64,000 nucleotides of DNA from Spirochaetia bacterium (GCA_965263295.1 OZ253665.1:2176001-2240000), one strand, 5' to 3'. Numbered from the stretch's first letter, positions 5,470 through 56,505 are shown. Program-made: numbers and translations. The notes: generated by a model not told the origin, from the letters alone.

Positions 5470-5715
5470 ATGAGCAAAGAAGAAATGTACGACAAGTTGA
5501 AAGACCTGGTAGTCGAAAAGCTAGAAGTGGAAGCCAGCAAAGTAACCGAAAGCGCTCGCTTCCGCGAAGATCTTGGGGCTGACAGCCTCGATACTTATGA
5601 ACTGCTATTTGCGATCCAGTCTGAGTTGGACATCCAGATTGAAGATGATAAAGCTGCCAGTTTTGAAACTGTCGGCGATGCTTACAAGTACATCTGCGAA
5701 GTCAAAGGGCTTTAG
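5470..5715 (+). CDS. acpP: Acyl carrier protein (housekeeping)
   Basis: DLGADSLD phosphopantetheine motif; rpmF-acpP-rnc order. Confidence 0.96.
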   Translation: MSKEEMYDKLKDLVVEKLEVEASKVTESARFREDLGADSLDTYELLFAIQSELDIQIEDDKAASFETVGDAYKYICEVKGL

Positions 5716-33614: not shown

Positions 33615-34877
33615 ATGACTGATAGAAGGGTCGTTGTTACTGGCATTGGTACCATCAATCCGCTGGGCAATGATGTGCCCAGTTTCTGGGCCAACCTGGC
33701 CGAGGGAGAGAGTGGTATTGTCGACTTGCGTCCTATCTATCCGATATTGAGTGACTACAGCGTCAAGATCGGCGGTTATTTTGCCTTGCCAGACGATGCC
33801 CGCAACTATTTTGGGCGTTACGGCAAATGGCTCAAACGCTTAGATGAATTCACTGTGTACATGCAAATCGCTGGGGCCCAGGCCATGAGTGATTCGGGCC
33901 TGGATATGAGCTGCGAAGACCCTTTCCGCGTCGGCTCTCTATTGGGAACGGGCGAGGGCGGTTTGAACAGTCACGAGCGCAACCAAAGCTATCTGCAAAA
34001 GCATGGTATGAGTGCCCTGTCGCCTCTGTATGTGCTCAATGCGATACCGAATACGGCGACCGGCTTTTTTGCTCAGAGCTATGGCCTTTGCGGCCCGAAT
34101 TTTGCCCCTGTATCGGCGTGTGCTACTTCTAATCACAGCATTGGCCTGTCTTGCATGATGATTGAGTCGGGCATGGCGGATGTGATGTTTGCCGGAGGCT
34201 CTGAGTCGAGTTTGAACCCTTCCGGCATAGGTGCCTTTGGTAACTTGGGCGCCCTTTCCACCCAGTTCAACGAGGAACCTCGCCGGGCTAGCCGCCCCTT
34301 CGATATACAGCGCAGCGGCTTTGTCATGAGTAATGGTTCCGCCGTCCTTTGCCTTGAAGAGCTGAACCATGCCAAGAAACGCTGTGCCAAAATCTATGCA
34401 GAGGTTTCGGGATATTGTTTCTCTGCCGATGCCCACGATTTAGTGGCGCCTCACCCCGAGGGCACCAGTACTTCCCATGCGATGAAAAAGGCTTTGGAGA
34501 AGGCGCGTCTGAACCCGGCAGACATTAGTCTGATCAATGCTCACGGCACTTCTACAGCCTTGGGCGACAAGGTCGAGGAAATTGCAATTTACAAAGCATT
34601 GGGCTCGGCGGCGTCAAGCGTTGCAGTGCACAGCACCAAATCGATGACAGGCCATACCATAGGGGCTTCCGGTGCGATTGAGGCCATCGCTGCCCTATTG
34701 GCCCTTGAAAAGGGAATTATTCATCCGAGCATAAACTGCGATGAGCAGGACCCGGATATACGCCTTAATGTCATTACAGAGGCACGGGAGGATATTCCGG
34801 TGGAACATGTGATGTCCAATAACTTTGGCTTTGGTGGCCAGAACGCAGTGGTCATCTTGTCGCGTTTTAGCGCTTAG
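33615..34877 (+). CDS. fabF: 3-oxoacyl-ACP synthase II
   Basis: RRVVVTGIG, SACAT (Cys), INAHGTST, KSMTGH and NNFGFGGQN; Cys-His-His triad intact. Confidence 0.93.
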   Translation: MTDRRVVVTGIGTINPLGNDVPSFWANLAEGESGIVDLRPIYPILSDYSVKIGGYFALPDDARNYFGRYGKWLKRLDEFTVYMQIAGAQAMSDSGLDMSCEDPFRVGSLLGTGEGGLNSHERNQSYLQKHGMSALSPLYVLNAIPNTATGFFAQSYGLCGPNFAPVSACATSNHSIGLSCMMIESGMADVMFAGGSESSLNPSGIGAFGNLGALSTQFNEEPRRASRPFDIQRSGFVMSNGSAVLCLEELNHAKKRCAKIYAEVSGYCFSADAHDLVAPHPEGTSTSHAMKKALEKARLNPADISLINAHGTSTALGDKVEEIAIYKALGSAASSVAVHSTKSMTGHTIGASGAIEAIAALLALEKGIIHPSINCDEQDPDIRLNVITEAREDIPVEHVMSNNFGFGGQNAVVILSRFSA

Positions 34878-36329: not shown

Positions 36330-37586
36330 TCACCGAGCCAGGGTGCGGGCTTCAAGATAAAAAGTTGCCGGCCTAGCGTTTGCTTGTGGTAGTTCGCTGG
36401 GCATCTGGTCTGGGTTTTGCTTCTCTGCTCCTGGTTTTGCAATATCATCGGCTATCGTTTTGGGGGATTGGCCAGCTGCCTTTGCCGCCGCCGTGGTGTG
36501 CTTTGGGCCGGCCAAGTCTATAACTCTGATACGGCCAAAGACGGTCAGTGCCTGGTCGGTCGGAACGCTGATCAGGTCTCCAAGCAGTACGAGAACTTGT
36601 CCTTCCAGCACGGTACCGTCGGTGTAGCCGACTAGTAGAGTAAATTGCAGTTGGCCTTTTTTATCGATGCGAATATTTGTGGGCCGACCTCGCCAACTGA
36701 CAAAGCAATTCTGGTAGAGTTGAGGATTGCTGCGCACTTCTTGAAAACTAAAGTTATTCTTCAGGTTGTAGATTTCCACTTGATTGCCCAATAGGCTTTC
36801 AATAATGCGCAACTTGGCTTTTACTTTGTCACTGGCATTGGAGTAGAAAATCTTGTTGATGTCGCGCTGCACCAAGTTGTCGTTGTAGAGATCATAATTT
36901 TTGCGGATCTGGACTGTCAATTGGGTCAATTGTTCTTCGCTAAACTCAAATAGGTGCTGCTTCTTCTCAAATGAGAAGTATTCACTGGCGTCTAAGTCGG
37001 CGAGAGAAATGTTGTCGGCCTGTTCGCGCTGCTCTCGCCAATCCTTGTAGAGTTTTTGTAGCTTTGGGGCGCCGACACTGTAACCCAGCCAGGCACCCCA
37101 GAGCAGCAACAGGAGAAAGATGAGGCGCCACAGTTTACGGCTGATGCGATAACGCAGTACGCCGGGCAGGGCGGGGAGCAGTTTCGCAAATTTAGGACTT
37201 CGAGTGAAGTTGTAGAGTTCTTCAACGTCATTAATGCGGCGGATCTGGTCCAGTCCATAACGCAAGCAGGCGCGGCGGCAGCCAGCATTCTCCAGCTTCA
37301 GCCAGATTGAGATAGCGCGGTAAGTATCGCGCTCTTTAACTGCGAAGCAGGCTTGCATCAGTTGAATTTCTTCGTGGTTAGGTTCATTTTCCAGGCCTCT
37401 TCTTAGATATAGCTGGGCATTTTCTGAATCTCCCGCAGCAAAATAAGAGCGACCAAGTAGATAAAAGTAATCGGCATTATCAATAAATAAAGATATTTTA
37501 GGCTCCAGCAGGTTGATGCAACCGGTTAGCTGTCCCCGTATCAACAGTCTTACAGCTTTGCGCAGGGTTCGGTTTGGGCTGTTCAT
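36330..37586 (-). CDS. TPR-containing single-pass membrane protein
   Basis: TPR (YFYLLGRSYFAAGDSENAQLYL), central TM helix, beta-rich C-terminal region; overlaps the stop of the upstream gene by 4 nt. Confidence 0.75.
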   Translation of the reverse strand: MNSPNRTLRKAVRLLIRGQLTGCINLLEPKISLFIDNADYFYLLGRSYFAAGDSENAQLYLRRGLENEPNHEEIQLMQACFAVKERDTYRAISIWLKLENAGCRRACLRYGLDQIRRINDVEELYNFTRSPKFAKLLPALPGVLRYRISRKLWRLIFLLLLLWGAWLGYSVGAPKLQKLYKDWREQREQADNISLADLDASEYFSFEKKQHLFEFSEEQLTQLTVQIRKNYDLYNDNLVQRDINKIFYSNASDKVKAKLRIIESLLGNQVEIYNLKNNFSFQEVRSNPQLYQNCFVSWRGRPTNIRIDKKGQLQFTLLVGYTDGTVLEGQVLVLLGDLISVPTDQALTVFGRIRVIDLAGPKHTTAAAKAAGQSPKTIADDIAKPGAEKQNPDQMPSELPQANARPATFYLEARTLAR

Positions 37587-40500
37587 TTGTCGATATGATA
37601 TTTATTTTCAAGGTGAGACCAACGTTTTTCGCTATCATTAACGTCCTTCTCATCAAATTTTTTGTATTTTAGATAAGTATCCATATCTTGGATGAAATTT
37701 TTTACATCGCGGTAGGGCTCGCTGTCATTGCCGATTGAAGGTTGTTGAAGGATGCTTTTGGCTGGAACCACAGATGAATCAGAGCCCGGAGCTGTTTGCG
37801 GAGAGTGCTGAATGCCGTCGGGTGTCCTGCGGGCGAGGCCGCCGCCCTGCTGACTGAGCTTCTGACCGTAATTGGGAACTTGGGCCTGTGCTTTGCCGCC
37901 GCCTTGTAGGCTTTGGGTGCCGTCGGGTGTCCTGCGGGCGAGGCCGCCGCCCTGCTGGCTGAGCTGCTGGTCGTAACTAGGAAGCTGGGTTTGTGCTTTG
38001 CCGCCGCCTTGTAGGCTTTGGGTGCCGTCGGGTGTCCTGCGGGCGAGGCCGCCGCCCTGCTGGCTGAGCTGCTGGTCGTAACTAGGAAGCTGGGCCTGTG
38101 CTTTGCCGCCGCCTTGTAGGCTTTGGGTGCCGTCGGGTGTCCTGCGGGCGAGGCCGCCGCCCTGCTGGCTGAGCTGCTGGTCGTAACTAGGAAGCTGGGT
38201 TTGTGCTTTGCCGCCGCCTTGTAGGCTTTGGGTGCCGTCGGGTGTCCTGCGGGCGAGGCCGCCGCCCTGCTGACTGAGCTGCTGGTCGTAACTAGGAAGC
38301 TGGGTTTGTGCTTTGCCGCCGCCTTGTAGGCTTTGGGTGCCGTCGGGTGTCCTGCGGGCGAGGCCGCCGCCCTGCTGACTGAGCTTCTGACCGTAATTGG
38401 GAAGCTGGGTTTGTGCTTTGTCGCCGCCTTGTAGGCTTTGGGTGCCGTCGGGTGTCCTGCGGGCGAGGCCGCCGCCCTGCTGGCTGAGCTGCTGGTCGTA
38501 ACTAGGAAGCTGGGTTTGTGCTTTGCCGCCGCCTTGTCGGCTTTGGGTGCCGTCGGGTGTCCTGCGGGCGAGGCCGCCGCCCTGCTGACTGAGCTTCTGA
38601 CCGTAATTGGGAACTTGGGCCTGTGCTTTGCCGCCGCCTTGTCGGCTTTGGGTGCCGTCGGGTGTCCTGCGGGCGAGGCCGCCGCCCTGCTGGCTGAGCT
38701 GCTGGTCGTAACTAGGAAGCTGGGTTTGTGCTTTGCCGCCGCCTTGTAGGCTTTGGGTGCCGTCGGGTGTCCTGCGGGCGAGGCCGCCGCCCTGCTGGCT
38801 GAGCTGCTGGTCGTAACTAGGAAGCTGGGTTTGTGCTTTGCCGCCGCCTTGTAGGCTTTGGGTGCCGTCGGGTGTCCTGCGGGCGAGGCCGCCGCCCTGC
38901 TGGCTGAGCTTCTGACCGTAATTGGGAACTTGGGCCTGTGCTTTTGGTCCTTTGCCGCCGCCTTGTAGGCTTTGGGTGCCGTCGGGTGTCCTGCGGGCGA
39001 GGCCGCCGCCCTGCTGACTGAGCTTCTGACCGTAACTAGGAAGCTGGGTTTGTGCTTTGCCGCCGCCGTGTAGGCTTTGGGTGTCGTCGGGTGTCCTGCG
39101 GGCGAGGCCGCCGCCCTGCTGACTGAGCTTCTGACCGTAATTGGGAACTTGGGCTTGTGCTTTTGGTCCTTTGCCGCCGCCTTGTAGGCTTTGGGTGCCG
39201 TCGGGTGTCCTGCGGGCGAGGCCGCCGCCCTGCTGACTGAGCTTCTGACCGTAATTGGGAACTTGGGTTTGTGCTTTGCCGCCGCCTTGTAGGCTTTGGG
39301 TGCCGTCGGGTGTCCTGCGGGCGAGGCCGCCGCCCTGCTGACTGAGCTTCTGACCGTAATTGGGAACTTGGGCTTGTGCTTTTGGTCCTTTGCCGCCGCC
39401 TTGTAGGCTTTGGGTGCCGTCGGGTGTCCTGCGGGCGAGGCCGCCGCCCTGCTGACTGAGCTTCTGACCGTAATTGGGAACTTGGGCTTGTGCTTTTGGG
39501 CCTTTGCCGCCGCCGTGTAGGCTTTGGGTGCCGTCGGGTGTCCTGCGGGCGAGGCCGCCGCCCTGCTGACTGAGCTTCTGACCGTAATTGGGAACTTGGG
39601 CTTGTGCTTTGGGGCCTTTGCCGCTGCCTTGTAGGCTTTGGGTGCCGTCGGGGGTTCTGCGGGCGAGGCCACCGCCCTGCTGACTGAGCTTCTGACCGTA
39701 ATTGGGAACTTGGGCTTGTGCTTTTGGGCCTTTGCCGCCGCCGTGTAGGCTTTGGGTGCCGTCGGGTGTCCTGCGGGCGAGGCCGCCGCCCTGCTGGCTG
39801 AGTTTCTGACCGTAATTGGGAACTTGGGCCTGTGCTTTTGGTCCTTTGCCGCCGCCTTGTAGGCTTTGGGTGCCGTCGGGTGTCCTGCGGGCGAGGCCGC
39901 CGCCCTGCTGACTGAGTTTCTGACCGTAATTGGGGATTGGGGTTTGTACCTGGCTACTACGGTCACCGTAGCCCAAATCGGTCGAGGCATGAGGTTGAGG
40001 TTTTTGGATACTCGTTTGGTTGGGCTCTATGCCATAATATGAGGAGGGGATCTCGCTGCTCTCTAGATCAGTGCGGTAACTTTCTACATAACTTTTTCTT
40101 TCTACTGGGGCGATAGTTTGAGGGCGGGTAAACTGTCCGGTGTAATTTCCATCAACGGTGGGATTACGGCCCACGGTTGTACTGCCGTCGGGCATCACAG
40201 GGTTGCCTTTCGGCACGATAGGTTCTTTGCTGGCAGCTTGGGGCGCATAATTTCCATAGGGAGAAGGGCTGGGACTTAGCGCCGAACTAGAGGGCTGATT
40301 TGAATTTTCATTGCGCTTGTATTCAGGCAAGGGGGGACTGCTTTTTTCGGGAAAGCCTTTCAAAGCATTGTAGAGTTCGTTTTCGTTGATTTGAGGACGA
40401 ACGGTATCCGACATTTTATTGCGGGGCTTGCGATTTCTGCTTGTGGAGGGATAGGGGTTTACCAGCTGTACCAGTTGGGCCGAAGCATAGTAATCGTTTT

Positions 40501-42805
40501 GCAGTTTGGGTAGTGAATGCTTCAGCAACTGCGGCAGCGAGAATTTCGATAGTTGGACGACCTGTTTTTGATCCAGCTGGCTTTGAAGTTCATTTTGTGC
40601 GCTTTGCAGTTTCTGCATGGCTTCATTTTGCCGGTCAATTTGGGCACTGACCTGTTGTAAGAGTTCTTTAATTTCCTGTTCTTTGTGGTAAGGATTATAA
40701 GCCAGGCGAGTCTGGTGCAGACTAATATCTTCCTGCCATTGCTCTAATAGGCGAATATTGCTAAATGCCACTTGCAACTGAGAGGCAATAGCTTTTAAAT
40801 CACGATTGTTGGATTCCAGCTTCTGGTCGTTGTGGAATAAACGCTGTTGCAGGAGAGCCTTGAAACCTTGCTGCTGGCCGGCCTGTTCGGCGTAGCCTGA
40901 GAAGTCGATATAGAGTTGTTGCAGGAGCGGCTGGGTATCGACAAGGTTTTGGCGCACAGCTAACAGGGTATTGCTCATCTCGCCATAGAGTGGCGATAGC
41001 GGTGCTTGCAGACGCTGTTGCACCCCATTGCTGTAACGAGCTAGATCGGACAGCTCGTTCATATATGAGGCCAACTGCTGCTGCATCTGGTAGAGAGCAT
41101 TGCCAATGCGTTTGGCCGGCTCGCCGACTTTGCCGTTTTGCCAGTCTTCCCAGGTATCTTCGACGCGCTGTATCAGAGGCGCCCACTGTTCGACAAGGCC
41201 CCTGAGGTCTAGGCGCAGGTCCCGCAGGTTATGGTGGAACTTTATGACTTCCGGTTGCTGGCGTGAGCTTTTGGGCAGCTGAGCCATAATGTTGACTAAG
41301 TAGGTGTTCCAATTATCCAGCTGCCCCGACAAGCGTATTTGCTGGACGCGCCAGGCCTGTAAATCTTCTTCTGGTGAACGCAGCTCTCTGTAGGGGGCGA
41401 GTTGGCGCAGTTTACTTTGTTGAAGTTCTTGGGCGACACCCAGGTTCTCCTCCAAGGCCTGTAATTGGGAAAAGCGTTTACTTTCGCTGTGGTAAAGCAG
41501 ATTTAAAGCTTCGATGTCAATGCTGGGCAGGTAGAGAGTTTCTGCTTGTGGCTTATCGCTGTCCTGGGTCTTTGACTGGGGTTCGGCTTGGACGGTCTGG
41601 GCTGCCTGGTTTGTTTCACTTGTCTGGTCTGCCTGGTCTTCTGTTCTGGCGGCGCTCGCTTGCCGGTGCTCTTCCAACAGTTGGTTGTTGCGACGTTGTT
41701 CTGCTAACAATTGACGCAGTAGCTCGTCGGTCAAGGATTCTTTTGCCGGTGGCACCTCTGGCTGTGTGGGGGCCGGGGCCGGCTCTTCTGCTACCGGTTT
41801 GTCTTGAATCGGTTTAGTTTCGATCGGAGCTGAATTCAGTACCTGGGGGTCATGAAATTCCCGCAGGTTAGTGAAGCTTGGAACGGAATCGAAAGCGAGG
41901 TAGATGACGTAGCTACGCGATTGGCGCGCCGAAAGTGGACGTGCGTCGTAGTAGAGGCCCAATGCCGGGTTGTTGCTGTCGTACAGGTTGTAACCGAAAC
42001 CTTGGCTGTTGAGCTGGAAGCCATAGTTCCAGCCGGCCTCGTGTAGTTTCGTCCAGTTCGCCAAGATGACTCGGTCAGGGCAGGTGGAGCCGCGCACGTT
42101 CAGATAAAAGTAGGCGTTGTAGCTAGTTTGGACAAAATAAGGCACCTGGCTTGTCTCCAGGATAGTTTCGCGAAATACATCGCCGTCGGGCAAGGAAAAC
42201 GCCGGCAAGCCCAGGTTGTTATTGGCAATGTCAAACATATGAAAAAGACCGACGCTTTGGGTAATTGATGCCGAGTTTTCGATAATTATGTTCAATCGGA
42301 TATAACTGGTCAGGCTGGACTCACTGAGGATGCGTACATAATACTTGACGTTGATTTTTTGTGGCAACTTCCAGAACATGGCCCCGCCGTCCGTCAACAG
42401 GGTGAGGCGCTCCGCTTTGTTGGCCAGGTAGCGGGTGCTGCGTCCGAGAGTATAGACGCGGCCATTTAGGGCTATGGCGATGTAGGTACTGCGCGGTTCG
42501 CGATCGTTGATCAGGCGCACTAGGCGGTTTTTGCCGACCTCACGCTTGTAAAGTGAATATGAGCCAGTATTGGGGCTAAATCGGATGATGTAATTATTTT
42601 TTTCAACGACTGGGTTATTCGTTCCCGTCATTGAAACTTGTGCATGTAAAGAGGGGAATATTTCGAGATGGCTTAGCCATAAGAAACATAGATAACTTAG
42701 AGTGGCGGCGGCCAGTCGATGCTTGCTGACTTGCTTTCGCATGGCAATGTGGGCTGGAGTCCAATTTCGCGGGCGTCTATTGGGTATTATGTTTAGAGTG
42801 TCCAA
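37583..42805 (-). CDS. 1740-aa exported protein: beta-rich N-domain, coiled coil, 20 tandem Gln/Gly-rich repeats
   Basis: Uninterrupted ORF with a signal-like N-terminus, a Q/L/E heptad region and the repeat array; coupled to both flanking TPR genes. Confidence 0.85.
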   Translation of the reverse strand: MDTLNIIPNRRPRNWTPAHIAMRKQVSKHRLAAATLSYLCFLWLSHLEIFPSLHAQVSMTGTNNPVVEKNNYIIRFSPNTGSYSLYKREVGKNRLVRLINDREPRSTYIAIALNGRVYTLGRSTRYLANKAERLTLLTDGGAMFWKLPQKINVKYYVRILSESSLTSYIRLNIIIENSASITQSVGLFHMFDIANNNLGLPAFSLPDGDVFRETILETSQVPYFVQTSYNAYFYLNVRGSTCPDRVILANWTKLHEAGWNYGFQLNSQGFGYNLYDSNNPALGLYYDARPLSARQSRSYVIYLAFDSVPSFTNLREFHDPQVLNSAPIETKPIQDKPVAEEPAPAPTQPEVPPAKESLTDELLRQLLAEQRRNNQLLEEHRQASAARTEDQADQTSETNQAAQTVQAEPQSKTQDSDKPQAETLYLPSIDIEALNLLYHSESKRFSQLQALEENLGVAQELQQSKLRQLAPYRELRSPEEDLQAWRVQQIRLSGQLDNWNTYLVNIMAQLPKSSRQQPEVIKFHHNLRDLRLDLRGLVEQWAPLIQRVEDTWEDWQNGKVGEPAKRIGNALYQMQQQLASYMNELSDLARYSNGVQQRLQAPLSPLYGEMSNTLLAVRQNLVDTQPLLQQLYIDFSGYAEQAGQQQGFKALLQQRLFHNDQKLESNNRDLKAIASQLQVAFSNIRLLEQWQEDISLHQTRLAYNPYHKEQEIKELLQQVSAQIDRQNEAMQKLQSAQNELQSQLDQKQVVQLSKFSLPQLLKHSLPKLQNDYYASAQLVQLVNPYPSTSRNRKPRNKMSDTVRPQINENELYNALKGFPEKSSPPLPEYKRNENSNQPSSSALSPSPSPYGNYAPQAASKEPIVPKGNPVMPDGSTTVGRNPTVDGNYTGQFTRPQTIAPVERKSYVESYRTDLESSEIPSSYYGIEPNQTSIQKPQPHASTDLGYGDRSSQVQTPIPNYGQKLSQQGGGLARRTPDGTQSLQGGGKGPKAQAQVPNYGQKLSQQGGGLARRTPDGTQSLHGGGKGPKAQAQVPNYGQKLSQQGGGLARRTPDGTQSLQGSGKGPKAQAQVPNYGQKLSQQGGGLARRTPDGTQSLHGGGKGPKAQAQVPNYGQKLSQQGGGLARRTPDGTQSLQGGGKGPKAQAQVPNYGQKLSQQGGGLARRTPDGTQSLQGGGKAQTQVPNYGQKLSQQGGGLARRTPDGTQSLQGGGKGPKAQAQVPNYGQKLSQQGGGLARRTPDDTQSLHGGGKAQTQLPSYGQKLSQQGGGLARRTPDGTQSLQGGGKGPKAQAQVPNYGQKLSQQGGGLARRTPDGTQSLQGGGKAQTQLPSYDQQLSQQGGGLARRTPDGTQSLQGGGKAQTQLPSYDQQLSQQGGGLARRTPDGTQSRQGGGKAQAQVPNYGQKLSQQGGGLARRTPDGTQSRQGGGKAQTQLPSYDQQLSQQGGGLARRTPDGTQSLQGGDKAQTQLPNYGQKLSQQGGGLARRTPDGTQSLQGGGKAQTQLPSYDQQLSQQGGGLARRTPDGTQSLQGGGKAQTQLPSYDQQLSQQGGGLARRTPDGTQSLQGGGKAQAQLPSYDQQLSQQGGGLARRTPDGTQSLQGGGKAQTQLPSYDQQLSQQGGGLARRTPDGTQSLQGGGKAQAQVPNYGQKLSQQGGGLARRTPDGIQHSPQTAPGSDSSVVPAKSILQQPSIGNDSEPYRDVKNFIQDMDTYLKYKKFDEKDVNDSEKRWSHLENKYHIDK
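37813..39934 (-). repeat. Coding tandem repeat: 20 copies of 105/114-bp units (last copy partial)
   Basis: Unit P[NS]Y[GD]Q[KQ]LSQQGGGLARRTPDGTQSLQGGGK(GPK)AQ[AT]Q[VL]; 7 long, 12 short, 1 partial. Confidence 0.97.
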
Positions 42806-50031: not shown

Positions 50032-51312
50032 CTAGCCTGCCGCGCTCAGATTTTTAACTAAACCTTTGGCAATCACATCCTCAATGATATTCAGAGCGCG
50101 GTCAATTGTTTCTGTCTCCAACTGCGAGGACACGGAAATGCGGAAGCGACGCTCGTGTGCCGGCACCGCCGGGTAGTCTACTGGTTGCAGAAACAGGCCC
50201 CGGCGTTGGACCTCGTAGGCCATTTTTAGCAGAGTCTCACCGGAGGAGCCAATAATAATCGGGATGACTTGAGATTCCGTGTGCCCCAGATTCAGATTCA
50301 TGGCCTCCAGGCCCTTGCGGAAGTAGTGGGTGTTCTCCCACAGCTTGTCGCGCAGGCTAGAGTCGCGCGTGGCCACTTCAAGGGCTTTCAGCAAGCCGCC
50401 GACAATCGGCGGCGCAATGGAACAGGAAAAGTTCCACGGGGCCGAATAACCTTTGAGGTAATCAATGAGTTCCTGGTTGGCGCAGATAAAGCCTCCGACG
50501 CCGCCAAATGACTTGCTGAGCGTACCGAAACTGACTCCTATTTTGTCTTCCAGGCCGAAATGTTCGCCGACGCCGCGGCCATTTTTACCAAAAATCAGCG
50601 AAGAGTGGGCCTCGTCCAGAAATAGCCCGGCATTGTAAGTTTCGCACAAAGCGCTGACTTCTGGCAATTTTACCAGGTCACCGTCCATTGAGTATATGCC
50701 TTCAACTAATACTAATGTGCGTTTTGCTTTGTACTTTTCCAATAAGACTTCCAAATTTTTAATGTCGTTATGTGGGAAAAAGACCATCTTGGCGCCGGAG
50801 GAAACCACGCCTTCGACAATGCTGCGGTGGATTTTTTCGTCCATGATGGCAATGTCACCCTTGCGCAATATACCCTGGATTGCCCCGACGTTGCCGCCAA
50901 AACCGCTGGAATATAAAAGGCAGGCTTCTTGCTCCTTAAATTGAGCCAATTTCTCTGCCAGCTGGACGTGTAAGTCGAACGTGCCTGAAAGTAGTGGGGC
51001 GCCAGAGGCACCCATGCCATACTTGTCCAAAGCCTCTTTGCAGGCTTGGATAACTTCAGGATGGGTGGAAAGTCCGAGGTAGTTATATGAAGTCAGGTTA
51101 ATGATGTCGCGCTCTTTGCCGTCAAAGTTGCTGCGCACTCGGCTGTGGGCCTGGGGTGCTCGCAACAATTGCTGTTCAAAAAAACCAAAGGCACTGCGCA
51201 CCTTGGGGTGGTAGAGCCATTGTTTGAAGTCTTCTGGCGGCTGCAATACATTGGGGTTGTCGTTGTAATGGAAATCGGCGAGGCTGAAATTCAGCAACTG
51301 GTCTTCTTTCAT
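50032..51312 (-). CDS. Alpha-oxoamine synthase (SPT/BioF/Kbl family PLP acyltransferase)
   Basis: SYNYLGLS, LLSGT, FPHND, EGIYSMDGD, DEAHS and GTLSKSFG (PLP lysine). Confidence 0.9.
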   Translation of the reverse strand: MKEDQLLNFSLADFHYNDNPNVLQPPEDFKQWLYHPKVRSAFGFFEQQLLRAPQAHSRVRSNFDGKERDIINLTSYNYLGLSTHPEVIQACKEALDKYGMGASGAPLLSGTFDLHVQLAEKLAQFKEQEACLLYSSGFGGNVGAIQGILRKGDIAIMDEKIHRSIVEGVVSSGAKMVFFPHNDIKNLEVLLEKYKAKRTLVLVEGIYSMDGDLVKLPEVSALCETYNAGLFLDEAHSSLIFGKNGRGVGEHFGLEDKIGVSFGTLSKSFGGVGGFICANQELIDYLKGYSAPWNFSCSIAPPIVGGLLKALEVATRDSSLRDKLWENTHYFRKGLEAMNLNLGHTESQVIPIIIGSSGETLLKMAYEVQRRGLFLQPVDYPAVPAHERRFRISVSSQLETETIDRALNIIEDVIAKGLVKNLSAAG

Positions 51313-51621
51313 CGGATATCCTTGACTGTAAAGATTTTATTACAATGCATTAAATTGTTGCCACCCCGGCTCAATCGGTGATTAAAGCCTCATTTGCCCA
51401 AAATTTTGAAGGCTCCAAATCAAGGCTTTAATCGCGGCCCCAATCGTGAAAATGGGCACTTAACATGATATTGGAAAATCGGCGGCAGGGCAAATTAGTT
51501 TTGTCGAATACTTTTCTGACAGAATATTTTGCTTCTTTCGGCGCTGCTCGCGCAGTTGATTTTGAGCTACTTTGTCGCTACATCTTGCCGTGACGGGAAC
51601 AAAAAAGTGGCACAAAGACTT

Positions 51622-51666
51622 GAGTATGCTAGAGCTCCCCCTTTTGGGGGGAGCTCTAGCATACTC
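51622..51666 (-). terminator. 20-bp perfect stem-loop downstream of the second ACP
   Basis: gagtatgctagagctccccc-ttttg-gggggagctctagcatactc. Confidence 0.7.
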
Positions 51667-51713
51667 GCATTATCCTTGTATTCTTTCTTTCCTTGGTCTG
51701 AATCAAGTTCTAC

Positions 51714-51959
51714 TCAAGTGTTGGCTACTTCGACAAATTTGTCCGCGAGTTGATCAATGGTCGTGATATCTGCGAGTTCAGCGCGAGGCACTTTTATCTT
51801 CAATTCACGCATGGCACAGGAAACGACTTCGATAATATCCAGGCTGTTGGCGCCGTAGTCTTTCATGGACTTATTGGGGTCGATATCATTGATATCGACA
51901 TCGTCCAGATTTTCTACAATCTGCTCTTTAATAACGGCAATGACTGCTTCTTTTGTCAT
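51714..51959 (-). CDS. Stand-alone acyl carrier protein, AcpK-like
   Basis: GANSLD motif and LKIKVPRAELA, resembling beta-branching donor ACPs; strong RBS AAAGGAG. Confidence 0.88.
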   Translation of the reverse strand: MTKEAVIAVIKEQIVENLDDVDINDIDPNKSMKDYGANSLDIIEVVSCAMRELKIKVPRAELADITTIDQLADKFVEVANT

Positions 51960-52084
51960 GGCTTACTCCTTTAAAGGTGGGTAAAGGTTGATAAAGTTTG
52001 AATTTCGTTGCGAATATACGTTTAATTTCCCGATTTTTTAATTTGAATGCGATCTGTGGCCAGCAAACAATTGCAAGCCTAATG

Positions 52085-52939
52085 TCAGATGCTTGTAGCT
52101 CCTAATTGCGACTGGGAGGACCCTGGCGGGACTTCCTGATTATTTTGAAAGCTAAAACGGTTCATCAGATTATCCTGAAATGGCAGGCCGTGGTCAACTT
52201 GCAGCAGTTGACCGTTCATGGCATCGAAAAGTCCGGAGCAAAGGGCAAAGAGAACTTTCCCACAATCGTCCGTTTGCAGTTGCAGCTTGGGGTCGACGCC
52301 GTTTTTCTGCGAGAATTCAAAAAATTCGTCTCCAAAAATAAACTCAAAGGACTCGGTTTTTACGGTGCCAAAACGCACAACATTGACGCTGGAGCCCTCT
52401 TTTTGCAGGTGCACGGCCAGGTAGCGACCCAGAAATTCCAACATGGCCTTGGAAGCGGCGACAAAATCGTAGCCGGGATAGTAGTGATCGGGCCCGTCGC
52501 TGGAAACGCCAAGGACATGGCGCGGGTAGTGGCCAAATTGTTTCTTGGACTTTTGGCAGTAATCCACCAGCGGCCAGGAGCTATAATCGAGGGTCTTGTA
52601 GAGTGAGCGTTTCTTGTAGTCATCCAGTTTCTCGGTCTTGAGGGCAAAGCCCACGTTGTTGATGAAGACATCCAGCTTGTCGCAGTGCCGGGCGATTTCA
52701 GCCATGACTGTCGGTGTGTCTTCTTCGCGCGAAACATCGGCCTGAATGAATACCGGGGCCCGGCCTTGCAGTTCTGTGGTGAACTCGCGCGCGATGGCCT
52801 GAGTATCCGCGGAGCCCCATTTGTAGGTCAGGTAGACTTGGGCTCCAGCGCGGGCAAAGTACTTGGCCGCCCCTAGACCAATGCCCTTGGTGCCGCCGGT
52901 AATCAGGACATTCTTGCCCTTCATGTCGATGGAAAACAT
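52085..52939 (-). CDS. SDR oxidoreductase, FabL/FabI-like enoyl-ACP reductase
   Basis: TGGTKGIG, FINN and YPGYDFVAASK (Y-x6-K spacing typical of enoyl reductases). Confidence 0.8.
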   Translation of the reverse strand: MFSIDMKGKNVLITGGTKGIGLGAAKYFARAGAQVYLTYKWGSADTQAIAREFTTELQGRAPVFIQADVSREEDTPTVMAEIARHCDKLDVFINNVGFALKTEKLDDYKKRSLYKTLDYSSWPLVDYCQKSKKQFGHYPRHVLGVSSDGPDHYYPGYDFVAASKAMLEFLGRYLAVHLQKEGSSVNVVRFGTVKTESFEFIFGDEFFEFSQKNGVDPKLQLQTDDCGKVLFALCSGLFDAMNGQLLQVDHGLPFQDNLMNRFSFQNNQEVPPGSSQSQLGATSI

Positions 52940-52955
52940 AATAAGCTCCTAAGAA

Positions 52956-53699
52956 TCAATCCCCTGCGTAAAACTCTTTGATTATGGACTGGGTTTCGGG
53001 CAGGTTGAACGAAATTTTATGCATTAAATCCTCTTGCAGGCGGGCTTCAATGACCAGTTTTTTCTTGACGGCGCCCAGGCTGTGCTTTAACAGGTACAAG
53101 CTTTCCCGCGGCTTTTCCGCCATTTGCGTGGCGATATCCTCGGCTTTGGCCATGATTTCAGCTCTGGGCAGAATGTAATTGATATGCGTGCCGCGATTGG
53201 CGAGCTCTTTGCCTTTAAATCGCTTGCCGGTATACATCATTTCGGCGGCGGTGTAGGGCCCCAACAGTTGGGGCAGCAGGGTCGTGGAGGCCATGCCGGG
53301 AGTGAAACCCATGTTCATGAAGACAGCGCCGTAGCGGCTCTCGCGCGCGGCGAGCACGATGTCGCAGGCGGCACCCATCACCAGGCCTCCGCCCATGGCG
53401 TGGCCTTCCATCGCCGCGACAACCGGGAACGGGGCCCCTACTATCAGGTCGGTGATAATCAGGTCATCGACGGTGACTCGGCCTTCGGTGAGCCCAATCA
53501 GGCTGTCTTTGGCGCCGCCGGCGCAAAAGACCTGGCTCGTACCTTGGATAATGACGATTTTGGGTCGTACAACTTTACACAAATGCTGCCATTTTTCAAT
53601 GAACTCGCGCACAAGGTTTTTTGTGAGGACATTCGGGCCTTTGGCCTCATCCAGGCGAAAGATAAAATATCCCGCGGAGCTTTCAGTCAATTTGATCAT
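52956..53699 (-). CDS. Crotonase-fold enzyme, PksI/ECH2-like decarboxylase
   Basis: FCAGG, AAMEGHAMGGG, FMNMGFTPGM, LPRAE, AEKPRESL and EDLMH match the PksI pattern from memory. Start revised to MIKLTE (247 aa). Confidence 0.85.
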   Translation of the reverse strand: MIKLTESSAGYFIFRLDEAKGPNVLTKNLVREFIEKWQHLCKVVRPKIVIIQGTSQVFCAGGAKDSLIGLTEGRVTVDDLIITDLIVGAPFPVVAAMEGHAMGGGLVMGAACDIVLAARESRYGAVFMNMGFTPGMASTTLLPQLLGPYTAAEMMYTGKRFKGKELANRGTHINYILPRAEIMAKAEDIATQMAEKPRESLYLLKHSLGAVKKKLVIEARLQEDLMHKISFNLPETQSIIKEFYAGD

Positions 53700-53804
53700 G
53701 GCCAGCACTTTACGGAAAATCCGTGGCGGCGACAAGGGCTGAGGCGTTGCCCCGGCGTGCCGGCAGTTCAGGGCGGAGTCACATTGGCGGCCGCTTGAAT
53801 CCAA

Positions 53805-54314
53805 TTAGGATTTACATTTATGGCATTGCCCATTAATGCATTGATTGCATTGCCCATAGAGCACGAGAGTGTGGGATTTTAACGTAAAGCCATGTTCTGT
53901 GGCAATGCGCAGTTGCAGTGCTTCAAGTTCTTCGTTATGAAACTCAAAGTATTGGCCGCACTCGGTGCATATCAAGTGGTCGTGATGCTCGCAGTGGCGG
54001 GACGGTTCAAAGTAACTGGACTGAGTATGGATTCCCGGCGAGCCTTGAGAGCGCAGGTTCAACTCCTGAGCGAAACCGTTATTGCACAGCAACTTCAGAG
54101 TCCGGTATACTGTGGCCTGGCCAATCTGGGGCAGCTCCTTTTTTAGCATATGGTAGAGGCCTTCAGCGGTCAGGTGTTTGTCCTGCTCCATGAAGGTCTG
54201 AAAAATCAAGCGGCGCTGCTTGGTATCGCGCAGCTGGTTCATGCACAAAAAACGATTATATGCCGCGGCAGTTTTATCTTTCATGCGAGCCAGTATATTG
54301 ACATCAATTCTCAT
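53805..54314 (-). CDS. fur: Fur-family metalloregulator (alternative start ATG 54284)
   Basis: HLTAE, GQATVYRTLKLL, HHDHLICTECG and LYGQCNQC. Confidence 0.9.
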   Translation of the reverse strand: MRIDVNILARMKDKTAAAYNRFLCMNQLRDTKQRRLIFQTFMEQDKHLTAEGLYHMLKKELPQIGQATVYRTLKLLCNNGFAQELNLRSQGSPGIHTQSSYFEPSRHCEHHDHLICTECGQYFEFHNEELEALQLRIATEHGFTLKSHTLVLYGQCNQCINGQCHKCKS

Positions 54315-54647
54315 TATCTAGCCCCTAAACAGTTTCTCTGAATAAATTCGCTCTGCGCTCCCGCCTGCCCTCCCCTGAAAGTTTTTTGGGGAAAGCCCTT
54401 TATTATTTTGTGGAGTGGAGACTTTCGTCTCGTGGTCAAGGGTTTTGATTATTTTATCGGCGATTTTTATTGAATATTAAATTATTTTTTATCAGAAATA
54501 TTTTTATCCAATATTTTGGGCTTTTTTATTGACGCAAGAAAAAAAATATCCTTTTCATTCATTTTATTTTCACTTTCGTTCCGATCTTGTTGCAAATTGT
54601 TTTAATTTGCCTGGAATTCCATTTTGGGTCCCTGATAAATTTTGTCA

Positions 54648-54707
54648 ATTTTGCCAGGAAATTCCCAATTTAAAACGATTTTTAAATTGGAAAATTCCTG
54701 GCAAAAT
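54648..54707 (-). terminator. Long imperfect inverted repeat downstream of the porin-like gene
   Basis: attttgccaggaaattcccaatttaaaa-cgat-ttttaaattggaaaattcctggcaaaat (26 of 28 positions pair). Confidence 0.6.
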
Positions 54708-54755: not shown

Positions 54756-56279
54756 TTACTTGTTGAACTTGGCCTTGAACGAGGCCTTCAGGCCGAGATT
54801 CATATACACGTCCGTGGAATAATTACTATGGTCAAATTTTCCGTTCTCGTAGGAGCCCCAACCCACACCCTTCTGCTTGAACGGGCGAGGATTTTCAATT
54901 TCCAACGAGGCCCAGATGCTGGCGCTCCTGTCCTTTTTGTTGACCAGGCGCTGCTCCACGCCAAAACCTAGGTAACTGAGCGGAGTTTGGCGCTCAACCT
55001 TTTCCTCGGTTGCATGTATCTTAGAGCCATCATTTTTTAGGTCCTTGTGGTCGGGCTCCCAGAATTCCATGCGCGTGCCGACCCAGGCACTCAGGTAGCG
55101 CTCGCCCATGACCGAACGCAGGGCGTCCGTCGAAACTTTGACGCCGATACCGCGGAAGGCTGTGTTGTCGACATAGCTCCTTTTTCCTTTGTGACCAGAG
55201 GCATCGGTAAAGTTGTCGTTTTCGCGCGTATCGCCGCCCATGTCGATACCCAGGCTGACCAGGTTGTAGCCTTCGTCCGGATCCTTCAGGCCGAATAGCA
55301 TGCCGGCGGACCACATGATCTTGGGATTTGCGTAGGCATTGGGCTGGCTGTTGCTGAGCCCCTGAACGCCAAGGTTGAACATGATGGGCGTAATATCCAG
55401 CGCGGCAAAGCCCAGGTCCAGGCTGGCCGTGTAGGCCAGGGAAAGGCCAAACTGGTCAAAATCCTGCGGCTCATAATCTCCGTCACTTGTGGTACCCACT
55501 TGTGGATTTGGTTCTTTAGCTTTGCCACTGATGCCGGCCGCCTTTTCATTGTTGGTCAGGTCTGCCTTGTAGCCAATGGAGGCACTGATATTGTGCATGC
55601 CAAACTCTTTTTCAAACAGCAGGGCCGCCCCCATGTCGTAGACTTTGTTCGGCTCATTTTTGCTGCCGATGGGTTTCTGAAAGTCGTGCAGGCTCATGCC
55701 CAGGCGCACGGTCAGCATGTCCAGTATCTTCATGTCCAGCTGCATATTCGGAACGACATACTTGAGGACTCCGGCCTGTGTGCCGCAGTCGTATTCCATT
55801 TTAAAGTCACCGCTAATGTCAGCAGCCCATTCGTCCTGCCCGGCGTCCTGACCGTTGCTCAGCTCGACGTCAAAAATGCCGCCCTGCAGGTACAGGTCAA
55901 ATTTTTCCTGATCCAGCCCCATCATGGCGTCGAGAATATGCATATAGACATACGACTCACCCAGTATAACGGCGGCATGCGATTGCCCTTTGTCTTTTTT
56001 ATAGTCGCCGGCGTAGCCCTCAATGCCGACCTTGACACCGACCAGGTTGTCGTAGTCAGCGTTTACCACGCTGGAGAACCTATCCTTTTGGGCAACGACC
56101 GCATTGCCTTCTTCCGCTTCCTCGCCACCCAGGTAAAACCTCCCCTTCAATTCGCCCTTGGGTTCAATGCTAAGTGAAAGCTTGCCGCCTTCTTGTTCGT
56201 CGGTCTGTGCCACAAGGTTGGGCATAGCCAACAAGCCGATAAACAACAATATTAAATTGTTCTTTATTAAATTCTTCAT
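54756..56279 (-). CDS. Exported beta-strand-rich protein, probable outer-membrane porin or major sheath protein
   Basis: Start MKNLIKNNL (RBS GGAGGA), signal peptide, many amphipathic strands, C-terminal YMNLGLKASFKAKF. Confidence 0.7.
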   Translation of the reverse strand: MKNLIKNNLILLFIGLLAMPNLVAQTDEQEGGKLSLSIEPKGELKGRFYLGGEEAEEGNAVVAQKDRFSSVVNADYDNLVGVKVGIEGYAGDYKKDKGQSHAAVILGESYVYMHILDAMMGLDQEKFDLYLQGGIFDVELSNGQDAGQDEWAADISGDFKMEYDCGTQAGVLKYVVPNMQLDMKILDMLTVRLGMSLHDFQKPIGSKNEPNKVYDMGAALLFEKEFGMHNISASIGYKADLTNNEKAAGISGKAKEPNPQVGTTSDGDYEPQDFDQFGLSLAYTASLDLGFAALDITPIMFNLGVQGLSNSQPNAYANPKIMWSAGMLFGLKDPDEGYNLVSLGIDMGGDTRENDNFTDASGHKGKRSYVDNTAFRGIGVKVSTDALRSVMGERYLSAWVGTRMEFWEPDHKDLKNDGSKIHATEEKVERQTPLSYLGFGVEQRLVNKKDRSASIWASLEIENPRPFKQKGVGWGSYENGKFDHSNYSTDVYMNLGLKASFKAKFNK

Positions 56280-56505
56280 TTTTTGTCCTCCTAAAGAAGA
56301 AATTTTTTGAATTACCAGCAGAAGTAAATCTCTTTGCTCCGGGAAAAGCAAAATGAACTACTTCCACATCCTAATACATATAAAAAGAATTAATATAAAA
56401 TTCAAGGCATAATCATAAAAAATTTAGGAAAATTATTCACTAAAACGTTATTTACCTTCCTTCAAAATTTTAAAACTTTATTTATATATTTAAAATAGCA
56501 GGCTC

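Follow-up and report, generated by a model that had tools for sequence, protein, structure and literature searches.

Four genes in a stretch of DNA from a Spirochaetia bacterium (GCA_965263295.1, OZ253665.1:2176001-2240000) are a fragment of a larger group of 11-12 conserved genes, the products of which probably make a branched, sphingolipid-like lipid. The whole stretch, referred to here as the window, is 64,000 nucleotides long and corresponds to C1:2176001-2240000 of a single-contig genome of 2.41 Mb. Positions with the prefix C1 are those of the contig and all others are those of the window. The four genes lie on the minus strand and encode ECH2, a PksI/CurF-type crotonase expected to act as a 3-methylglutaconyl-ACP decarboxylase (52956-53699; ACP, acyl carrier protein), an enoyl-ACP reductase (ER) that is a FabI/FabL-like short-chain dehydrogenase/reductase (SDR; 52085-52939), a dedicated ACP probably of the AcpK/CurB or donor-ACP type (51714-51959), and an alpha-oxoamine synthase (AOS; 50032-51312) of an uncharacterised clade. 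We estimate a probability of about 70% that the complete set amounts to a separate fatty-acid synthase which branches its chain at the beta position in the polyketide manner, feeds ceramide-type enzymes, and yields a branched sphingolipid-like lipid, whatever the position of the branch.

A sequence-only reading of the window had described five co-oriented genes and their motifs, the fifth being a fur-family regulator (53805-54314, minus strand; PF01475). All five open reading frames (ORFs) are present on the minus strand at the place given. ECH2, the reductase, the ACP, and the AOS belong together as that reading supposed, and fur, which is no conserved member, is a bystander. Overlooked in the earlier gene list was FabF2, a second FabF-type ketosynthase (KS) encoded on the plus strand at 33615-34877. 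This gene is orthologous to one that flanks intact operons of other spirochaetes, and is probably a member of the set and likely its elongating KS. The idea of a stand-alone route did not survive, because the window cluster is only a fragment of an 11-12-gene pathway.

With a score of 252.6, the crotonase exceeds the cut-off of 215 of NF005496, an NCBIfam model for PksI-type enzymes. Its best matches in the PDB are PksI (E 1e-41) and the ECH2 of CurF (1e-38), with a generic hydratase next at 1e-22, and the proposal that it is a PksI-type enzyme rather than a generic hydratase is thus upheld. The ORF as listed begins with a TTG at 53804, and the alignment with homologues begins at the ATG at 53699, which gives a protein of 247 aa. 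His227 near the C terminus is invariant in 10/10 aligned sequences and aligns with His230 of PksI, which PMC7501309 identifies as the catalytic residue. The equivalent of PksI Lys80, reported there to be dispensable, is not retained.

The reductase gene directly follows ECH2 in intact operons, and its Y157-x6-K164 motif is invariant in 12/12 aligned sequences. Its best families are FabL and FabI, with every score below cut-off. The ACP carries a GANSLD motif, and its nearest model is NF005502 for AcpK (53.5, below the cut-off of 79). The ACP of the thiomarinol cassette likewise stays under this cut-off at 73.6. The best PDB match of the window ACP is CurB. It shares 28% identity with the housekeeping ACP encoded at 5470-5715, in keeping with the earlier claim that the two are distinct, and 19% identity with AcpR of E. 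coli B.

The partners of these genes had been noted as lying outside the window, and this proved correct for HMG synthase (HMGS; HMG stands for 3-hydroxy-3-methylglutaryl), the second crotonase (ECH1), and the PksF-like KS, all of which are located elsewhere in the same genome. Profile searches found one HMGS gene and the ECH1 gene side by side at C1:530697-532770, both with their catalytic residues kept. HMGS (C1:531526) has invariant catalytic residues E81, C113, and H243, and its best PDB match is VirC (8s81, 223 bits), followed by CurD (216) and a myxobacterial MvaS (200), with PksG also among the best. ECH1 has PksH as its best PDB match, and its catalytic Glu aligns with that of PksH. 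Another cluster on the contig holds a putative acyltransferase resembling bacterial ceramide synthase (bCerS-like; C1:1099298), an acyltransferase (AT; C1:1100556), the PksF-like KS (C1:1101537), and a ketoreductase (KR). The bCerS-like protein, encoded upstream of AT-KS-KR, is 405 aa long and aligns with YghO of E. coli B over 384 columns at 30% identity (E 3e-45); PMC9386255 lists this YghO as homologous to the enzyme that N-acylates ceramide precursors in Caulobacter. The dehydratase (DH) of the set, a hotdog protein, is encoded at C1:1463895, and an Sfp-type phosphopantetheinyl transferase (PPTase) homologue at C1:1641412.

Across the genome, matches were found to no more than three discrete KSs and two ACPs. 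The modular-KS domain PF16197 is not found over cut-off in 8/8 carriers of the gene set, this genome included, and a partner modular polyketide synthase (PKS) was rejected on that basis. Similarly, no HMG-CoA reductase was found in 7/8 carriers, again including this genome, and a role for the HMGS as a mevalonate enzyme was rejected.

The PksF-like KS scores best on the PksF model NF005490 (304, below the cut-off of 445). It keeps a Cys178-His319-His356 triad in 5/5 and 7/7 aligned sequences, and its motif is GGACASG where the KS0 enzymes of polyketide cassettes have GGASASG, with Ser in place of Cys. In a quick tree of 32 rows, its clade is sister to the Ser-type KS0s of three plasmid-borne cassettes, including that of thiomarinol. 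The same tree places FabF2 in one clade with operon-flanking FabFs (SH-aLRT 99), apart from housekeeping FabF, and a convergent FabF paralogue flanks the operon in 16 loci compared.

The closest known systems for the branching steps are the HMGS cassettes of polyketide synthases, such as those for bacillaene (AcpK/PksF/PksG/PksH/PksI), curacin (CurB/C/D/E/F), and thiomarinol (pTML1). These share with our gene set a PksF-related KS, a candidate donor-type ACP, HMGS, ECH1, and ECH2, and the catalytic residues of the last three are retained here too. However, PMC11522927 defines such a cassette by a condensation-incompetent KS0 and a modular acceptor. Here the KS keeps its Cys and no modular PKS or module-bound acceptor ACP was found, so the gene set is a relative of the polyketide cassette and not a member of it. 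In contrast to the cassettes, it is joined to a discrete AT, KR, DH, ER, second KS, AOS, and N-acyltransferase.

In other spirochaetes, these genes form a single operon, which agrees with the earlier expectation that they would be conserved together. The 11-gene order bCerS-like, AT, KS, KR, HMGS, ECH1, ECH2, ER, ACP, AOS, DH is complete in seven of the loci compared (L040, L041, L046, L050, L177, L178, and L184), two of which come from single-contig genomes. Ten genes, from AT to DH, are found in loci L039, L047, and L048. Neighbours in some loci include PPTases, a CDP-alcohol phosphatidyltransferase, glycosyltransferases, and CerR-like epimerases. The last of these lie beside the operon in L040, L183, L184, and L185 and are 28-29% identical to the E. 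coli B protein.

A GTDB scan with the AOS, from which the best 80 of 589 loci were considered, shows how far the gene set extends. Among these 80, the nearest named AOS relatives are Spirochaetota records, and reordered versions that include HMGS occur in Nannocystis (L057, L059, and L063), other Myxococcales, one delta-proteobacterial record, and one Eremiobacterota record. Versions of the operon are present in the named strains Nannocystis pusilla Na p29 and N. radixulma NCELM, which means that the lipid can be sought directly. Myxococcota and related records (L057, L058, L064, and L065) carry two tandem enoyl reductase paralogues, of which one may act on branched and the other on straight enoyl-ACP. 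A decayed fragment of the gene set sits beside a transposase on plasmid pSF001 of Serratia fonticola (CP013914.1), where it comprises AT, an ACP (49% identical), DH, KS in two pieces, KR, and HMGS. This implies that the gene set can travel on plasmids.

Some relatives lack the branching step. Five Bradymonadales/Myxococcales records keep ACP and AOS. These are accompanied by KR, ER, and DH in three records and by a bCerS-like gene in two, and no HMGS was found in the five genomes, whose completeness is not given. In L122 (4601-11787), L054, and L055, an HMGS-free variant comprises an AMP-binding/ACP/KS fusion, KR, ER, ACP, AOS, and DH; this variant is a natural unbranched control for the pathway. 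Verrucomicrobiota (L061, L066-L071, L074-L080, and others) carry a sister AOS clade near a bCerS-like gene, without ACP or branching genes, and these AOSs are a large unassigned Spt-like group.

Among 151 genomes surveyed from the class, 18 carry a member of the HMGS clade and 19 a member of the AOS clade, and every HMGS carrier is also an AOS carrier (18/18), although four of the 18 HMGS carriers supplied the query profiles and related genomes are not independent observations. In 13 cases the HMGS and AOS genes lie within ~5 kb of each other. The single additional AOS without HMGS (G140) is on a contig whose end falls within ECH1. A bCerS-like gene is present in 19/21 carriers.

This co-occurrence bears on the possibility that the set merely supplies an isovaleryl primer for general membrane lipids, such as glycerolipids and capnine made with the housekeeping fatty-acid synthase, and that the AOS is only co-located and takes any acyl-ACP. 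The genome gives this explanation some room: no 2-oxoacid dehydrogenase E1 was found in it, two FabH-like genes stand in tandem, and a CapA/CapB-like pair is present. Moreover, the AOS lies away from the ACP gene in two genomes of the same genus and is separated from it here by a hairpin. However, the HMGS clade never occurs without this AOS (18/18), and the operon has its own KR, DH, AT, and KS, which would be superfluous for a mere primer route. The ACP adjoins the AOS in 5/5 genomes where no HMGS was found, which suggests that this protein, likely the carrier on which the AOS receives its chain, is not just an acetyl donor. We consider the primer explanation improbable.

In the genome under study the operon is broken into five pieces, and it has been shuffled differently in three genomes of the same genus (G001, G002, and G003). 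In G001 and G003 the AOS gene no longer adjoins the ACP gene, and in G001 ECH2 and the ER have also been separated. Despite this scattering, the genes for ECH2, HMGS, KS, DH, AOS, and the bCerS-like protein have no internal stops in all three. The ratio of nonsynonymous to synonymous changes (pN/pS) for ten pathway genes is 0.06-0.32, compared with 0.10-0.25 for housekeeping fabF/G/Z, although these values are rough because synonymous sites are close to saturation. The ten exclude the bCerS-like gene and FabF2; KR was compared with G002 only, and the AOS with genomes other than G003. Constraint at the level of housekeeping genes therefore persists even after the operon has been split into five pieces. 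The operon has also broken up independently in a second family (G061 and G083). Retention of the genes without linkage argues for one working pathway. Traces of older linkage can be seen in G002, where DH lies 9 kb from ECH2 (C1:2467435 of that genome), and in G003, where DH is ~4 kb from FabF2 (C5:1299335-1304747).

The function of the AOS is central to the predicted product. Of the pyridoxal phosphate and substrate residues listed in PMC9304779, the protein retains H162, D233, H236, T264, K267, and R391, and by sequence and by fold its best PDB match is Spt from S. multivorum. An AlphaFold model was built from a 68-row alignment (pLDDT 95.5), and with it Foldseek hardly separates Spt (4.5e-40) from Kbl-type enzymes (1e-38). 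An unrooted tree of 56 rows was assembled from 38 hand-picked members of the 80 loci, five cluster AOSs including that of the window, and 13 references, with no CqsA sequence among them. The window AOS falls within a 43-row clade (support 100/99). In this tree, which has few references and several long branches among them, the sister group of the clade (94/82) comprises the Spt of E. coli B, a Bacteroidota Spt that passes NF047600, and two further proteins, one Spt-like and one CapB-like. The clade and these references are split together from Kbl, HemA, and BioF at 100/97.

The possibility that the AOS belongs with BioF or Kbl had been raised at the outset, and the tree places it apart from both. 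A related explanation is that the genes are relics brought together by rearrangement. The highest NCBIfam scores of the AOS are indeed for BioF/Kbl-type models (335.5, 327.5, and 326.6), and gene shuffling in the genus is heavy. Yet all these scores are below cut-off, including those for BioF (326.6/426) and Kbl (327.5/460), and the reading frames are intact and constrained. The genome also has three other AOS genes, namely Kbl, which passes its cut-offs (638.7/460), a BioF-like gene, which scores 339 against 426 and has bioC/bioD-like neighbours (labels by sequence reading), and a SulA/CapB-like gene. Identity with BioF or Kbl, or a chance gathering of relics, is thus largely excluded and keeps a very small probability.

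The active site of the AOS sets it apart from SulA/CapB. All 24 clade members aligned have Cys297, a small residue, where Spt has Ala and where SulA/CapB carries Lys281, an active-site residue according to PMC9304779. SulA/CapB, as described in that paper, likewise condenses a long acyl-ACP with an amino acid. Identity of the window AOS with CapB was rejected, since Lys281 is replaced and a separate SulA/CapB-like gene exists in the genome. The latter (C1:2385931) matches cysteate-C-fatty acyltransferase at E 5e-94, keeps the Lys, and is also present in all three same-genus genomes with 80-82% identity. Together with a cysteate-synthase-like gene, which scores 321 against a cut-off of 325, it forms a capnine pair at C1:2385931-2388884 on the minus strand. 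This pair predicts capnine-type sulfonolipids in a spirochaete, as judged from the gene sequences.

It had been left open whether the pathway makes a lipid or a signal. The AOS could, for instance, give a diffusible amino-ketone signal or small secondary metabolite resembling CAI-1 or LAI-1 and not a membrane lipid. Branching cassettes are known from secondary metabolism, the AOS pocket is unlike that of Spt, the AOS clade is patchily spread (19/151), no CerR was found in the genus, and a decayed fragment of the set occurs on the Serratia plasmid. On the other hand, the CqsA-type model gives only 194.6 against a cut-off of 428, on which ground identity with CqsA was rejected, and in sequence matches CqsA is distant (E 2e-31, compared with 4e-76 for Spt). 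The distant CqsA match and the ceramide-synthase-like gene in the operon, present in nearly all carriers, make a signal weaker than a lipid as an explanation. The housekeeping-level constraint after scattering, and the epimerases, phosphatidyltransferase, and glycosyltransferases that neighbour the operon in relatives, also speak for a lipid. A signal is accordingly given little weight. On present evidence, the AOS probably works in an Spt-like manner, though it is not filed as an Spt, and serine as its amino acid is a guess.

The branched sphingolipid-like lipid could be assembled as follows, with all steps on the one dedicated ACP. Malonyl groups would be loaded by the AT, and the PksF-related KS would both decarboxylate malonyl-ACP to acetyl-ACP and condense it to acetoacetyl-ACP. 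HMGS would then join acetyl-ACP and acetoacetyl-ACP to give HMG-ACP, and dehydration by ECH1, decarboxylation by the window ECH2, and reduction by the window reductase would yield isovaleryl-ACP. Elongation by FabF2, KR, DH, and the reductase would produce an iso-branched long acyl-ACP, which the window AOS may condense with a small amino acid to form a 3-keto long-chain base, serine being the likeliest candidate. Finally, the YghO/bCerS-like enzyme would N-acylate this base. In genomes with a CerR-like enzyme, the keto group could be reduced by that protein, whereas in the genus studied here another reductase may act, or the lipid may stay 3-keto.

This iso-terminal version of the pathway falls somewhat short of an even chance. 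It is preferred because full reductive and branching cycles appear to run on one ACP with no loading enzyme for ready-made chains, and because the KS appears able to form acetoacetyl-ACP and CurD takes acetoacetyl groups on a donor ACP. In PMC11522927, acetoacetate is given as an acceptor for CurD, and acetoacetyl-donor-ACP as an accepted surrogate. The same four-step chemistry, bound to CoA, is described for the myxobacterial AIB route (PMC5389471).

The same pathway and lipid class could also arise if HMGS acts late or repeatedly. A long beta-ketoacyl-ACP would be branched immediately ahead of the AOS step, so that a 3-methyl acyl chain leads to a 5-methyl long-chain base, or branching rounds alternating with reductive cycles would give a polymethyl, isoprenoid-like chain. 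Polyketide HMGSs take long acceptors (PMC11522927), the best PDB match of our HMGS is VirC, two ER paralogues occur in the Myxococcota versions, and the HMGS-free layout with its adenylation-ACP-KS fusion looks suited to lengthening an existing fatty acid right ahead of the AOS. However, the spirochaete operon has no adenylation enzyme for loading such a chain, and CurD and MvaS are near VirC in score. In addition, with one ACP the selectivity must rest on chain length, and the same source gives acetoacetyl as the acceptor that HMGSs used ancestrally. Late or repeated branching is unlikely, though worth keeping in view.

Taken to its limit, repeated branching by HMGS would constitute a self-contained, ACP-bound way of making isoprenoid-like chains within primary lipid metabolism that ends in a polymethyl long-chain base, possibly with an amino acid other than serine. 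Here one AcpK-type ACP would be both donor and acceptor, and the Cys-keeping sister of the KS0s would both decarboxylate and condense. We regard this as a long shot. If true, it would define a new class of sphingoid lipids common to spirochaetes and myxobacteria, and possibly a lipid-metabolic ancestor of the polyketide beta-branching cassettes, the direction being a guess.

Several observations weigh against the preferred pathway, beyond the cautions already attached to the survey, the constraint values, the fold comparison, and the tree. The genome is 92.6% complete by markers. The ACP, KS, HMGS, and ECH1 all score under their own family cut-offs, and the AOS passes none of three Spt models (313.5/640, 268.4/500, and 231.6/670) or any other curated AOS model in NCBIfam, whereas E. 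coli B Spt passes (599/500). The clade is sister to the Spt references and not nested in them. Its pocket has Tyr76 in place of the conserved Asn, which is among the Spt residues listed as conserved in PMC9304779, as well as Pro106 in place of Arg, and Asp379; these changes mean that the amino acid may not be serine. No match to a CerR-like reductase was found in this genome with the E. coli B query, and across the three same-genus genomes there are weak partial matches in G002 only. The bCerS-like enzyme might act for the capnine genes, a CapA/CapB-like pair located elsewhere, and its gene was not found in G034, where the contig ends after AT, or in G061. Four carriers in other families have E1 dehydrogenases, which means that branching by this route does more than make up for the lack of a branched-chain 2-oxoacid dehydrogenase. 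The HMGS-free variant hints at late modification of the chain, and the product, the amino acid, and the branch position are predictions from the genes.

Bacterial ceramide synthesis provides the nearest parallel for the final steps of the sphingolipid-like pathway. In Caulobacter and E. coli B it proceeds by Spt, AcpR, AasR, bCerS (aca), and CerR (epi) (PMC9386255, PMC11087976), and Spt prefers a dedicated ACP (PMC9386255). Likewise, our AOS gene stands beside one for a dedicated ACP, a YghO/bCerS homologue belongs to the set, and CerR-like epimerases lie by the operon in several relatives. The systems differ in that the ACP here is AcpK-like and not AcpR-like, the chain is apparently made de novo and not loaded by AasR, the AOS stays under the Spt cut-offs, and no CerR was found in the genus. 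A comparable parallel for the branching steps is the AIB route of M. xanthus (MvaS, LiuC, AibA/B, and AibC; PMC5389471), in which the same predicted HMG formation, dehydration, decarboxylation, and reduction lead to an isovaleryl thioester that goes into iso-branched chains. Here, by contrast, the intermediates would be ACP-bound, a PksI-type crotonase replaces AibA/B, the reductase is an SDR, and the route is coupled to an AOS.

Each enzyme type in the set is known, and the combination seems to be new. Beta-branching cassettes have been described as add-ons of modular polyketide synthases, and here they appear to be wired to discrete fatty-acid and ceramide-type enzymes. In the open-access literature no description was found of this gene set or of sphingolipids from spirochaetes or Nannocystis, and the string “Spiroch” is absent from the main text of PMC11334938. 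If the reading is true, it would reveal that branched lipid chains can be built from acetate by a novel, carrier-bound route. It would also predict a sphingolipid-like lipid in ~1/8 of the sampled genomes of this spirochaete class, and would supply two targets that can be assayed as small soluble proteins, namely the AOSs of a large clade still without assigned function and a relative of KS0 that has kept its Cys.

The sequence-only reading had proposed a beta-branching route that ends in an AOS without a modular PKS, possibly under metal control by Fur. The route is supported, and the regulation is not. The fur orthologue is 1.1 Mb from ECH2 in G001 and 1.4 Mb from it in G003, and in G002 the two genes are 13 kb apart on opposite strands. 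No Fur box was found in the window at <=3 mismatches to the consensus used, from which the site of a spirochaete Fur-family protein may differ. Because the linkage is not conserved and no consensus match was found, Fur control of the cluster was rejected. Promoter-like sites, which by themselves do not show function, occur upstream of and inside fur. A 60-base imperfect inverted repeat at 54648-54707, upstream of fur, overlaps a promoter-like site.

Co-transcription across the cluster is doubtful. A terminator-like hairpin of 20 bp with a U-rich tail (51621-51667, minus strand; z -10.9) follows the 3' end of the ACP gene and separates it from the AOS gene, which may therefore have its own transcript. 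This hairpin is single-copy in the genome, not a repeated element, and has no match in the same-genus loci compared.

Three further features were recorded in passing. The FabH-like tandem pair mentioned above belongs to the housekeeping fab cluster at C1:378844-384978, which also encodes a FabV-like reductase (labels by sequence reading). Beyond fur in the window, the minus strand at 54756-56351 encodes a 531-aa protein with a signal-peptide-like start and a C-terminal Phe but no Pfam or NCBIfam match, which is possibly an outer-membrane protein. A 1740-aa protein is encoded at 37583-42805, also on the minus strand, and its C-terminal half contains many near-identical, Gly/Gln-rich repeats of ~33-36 aa.

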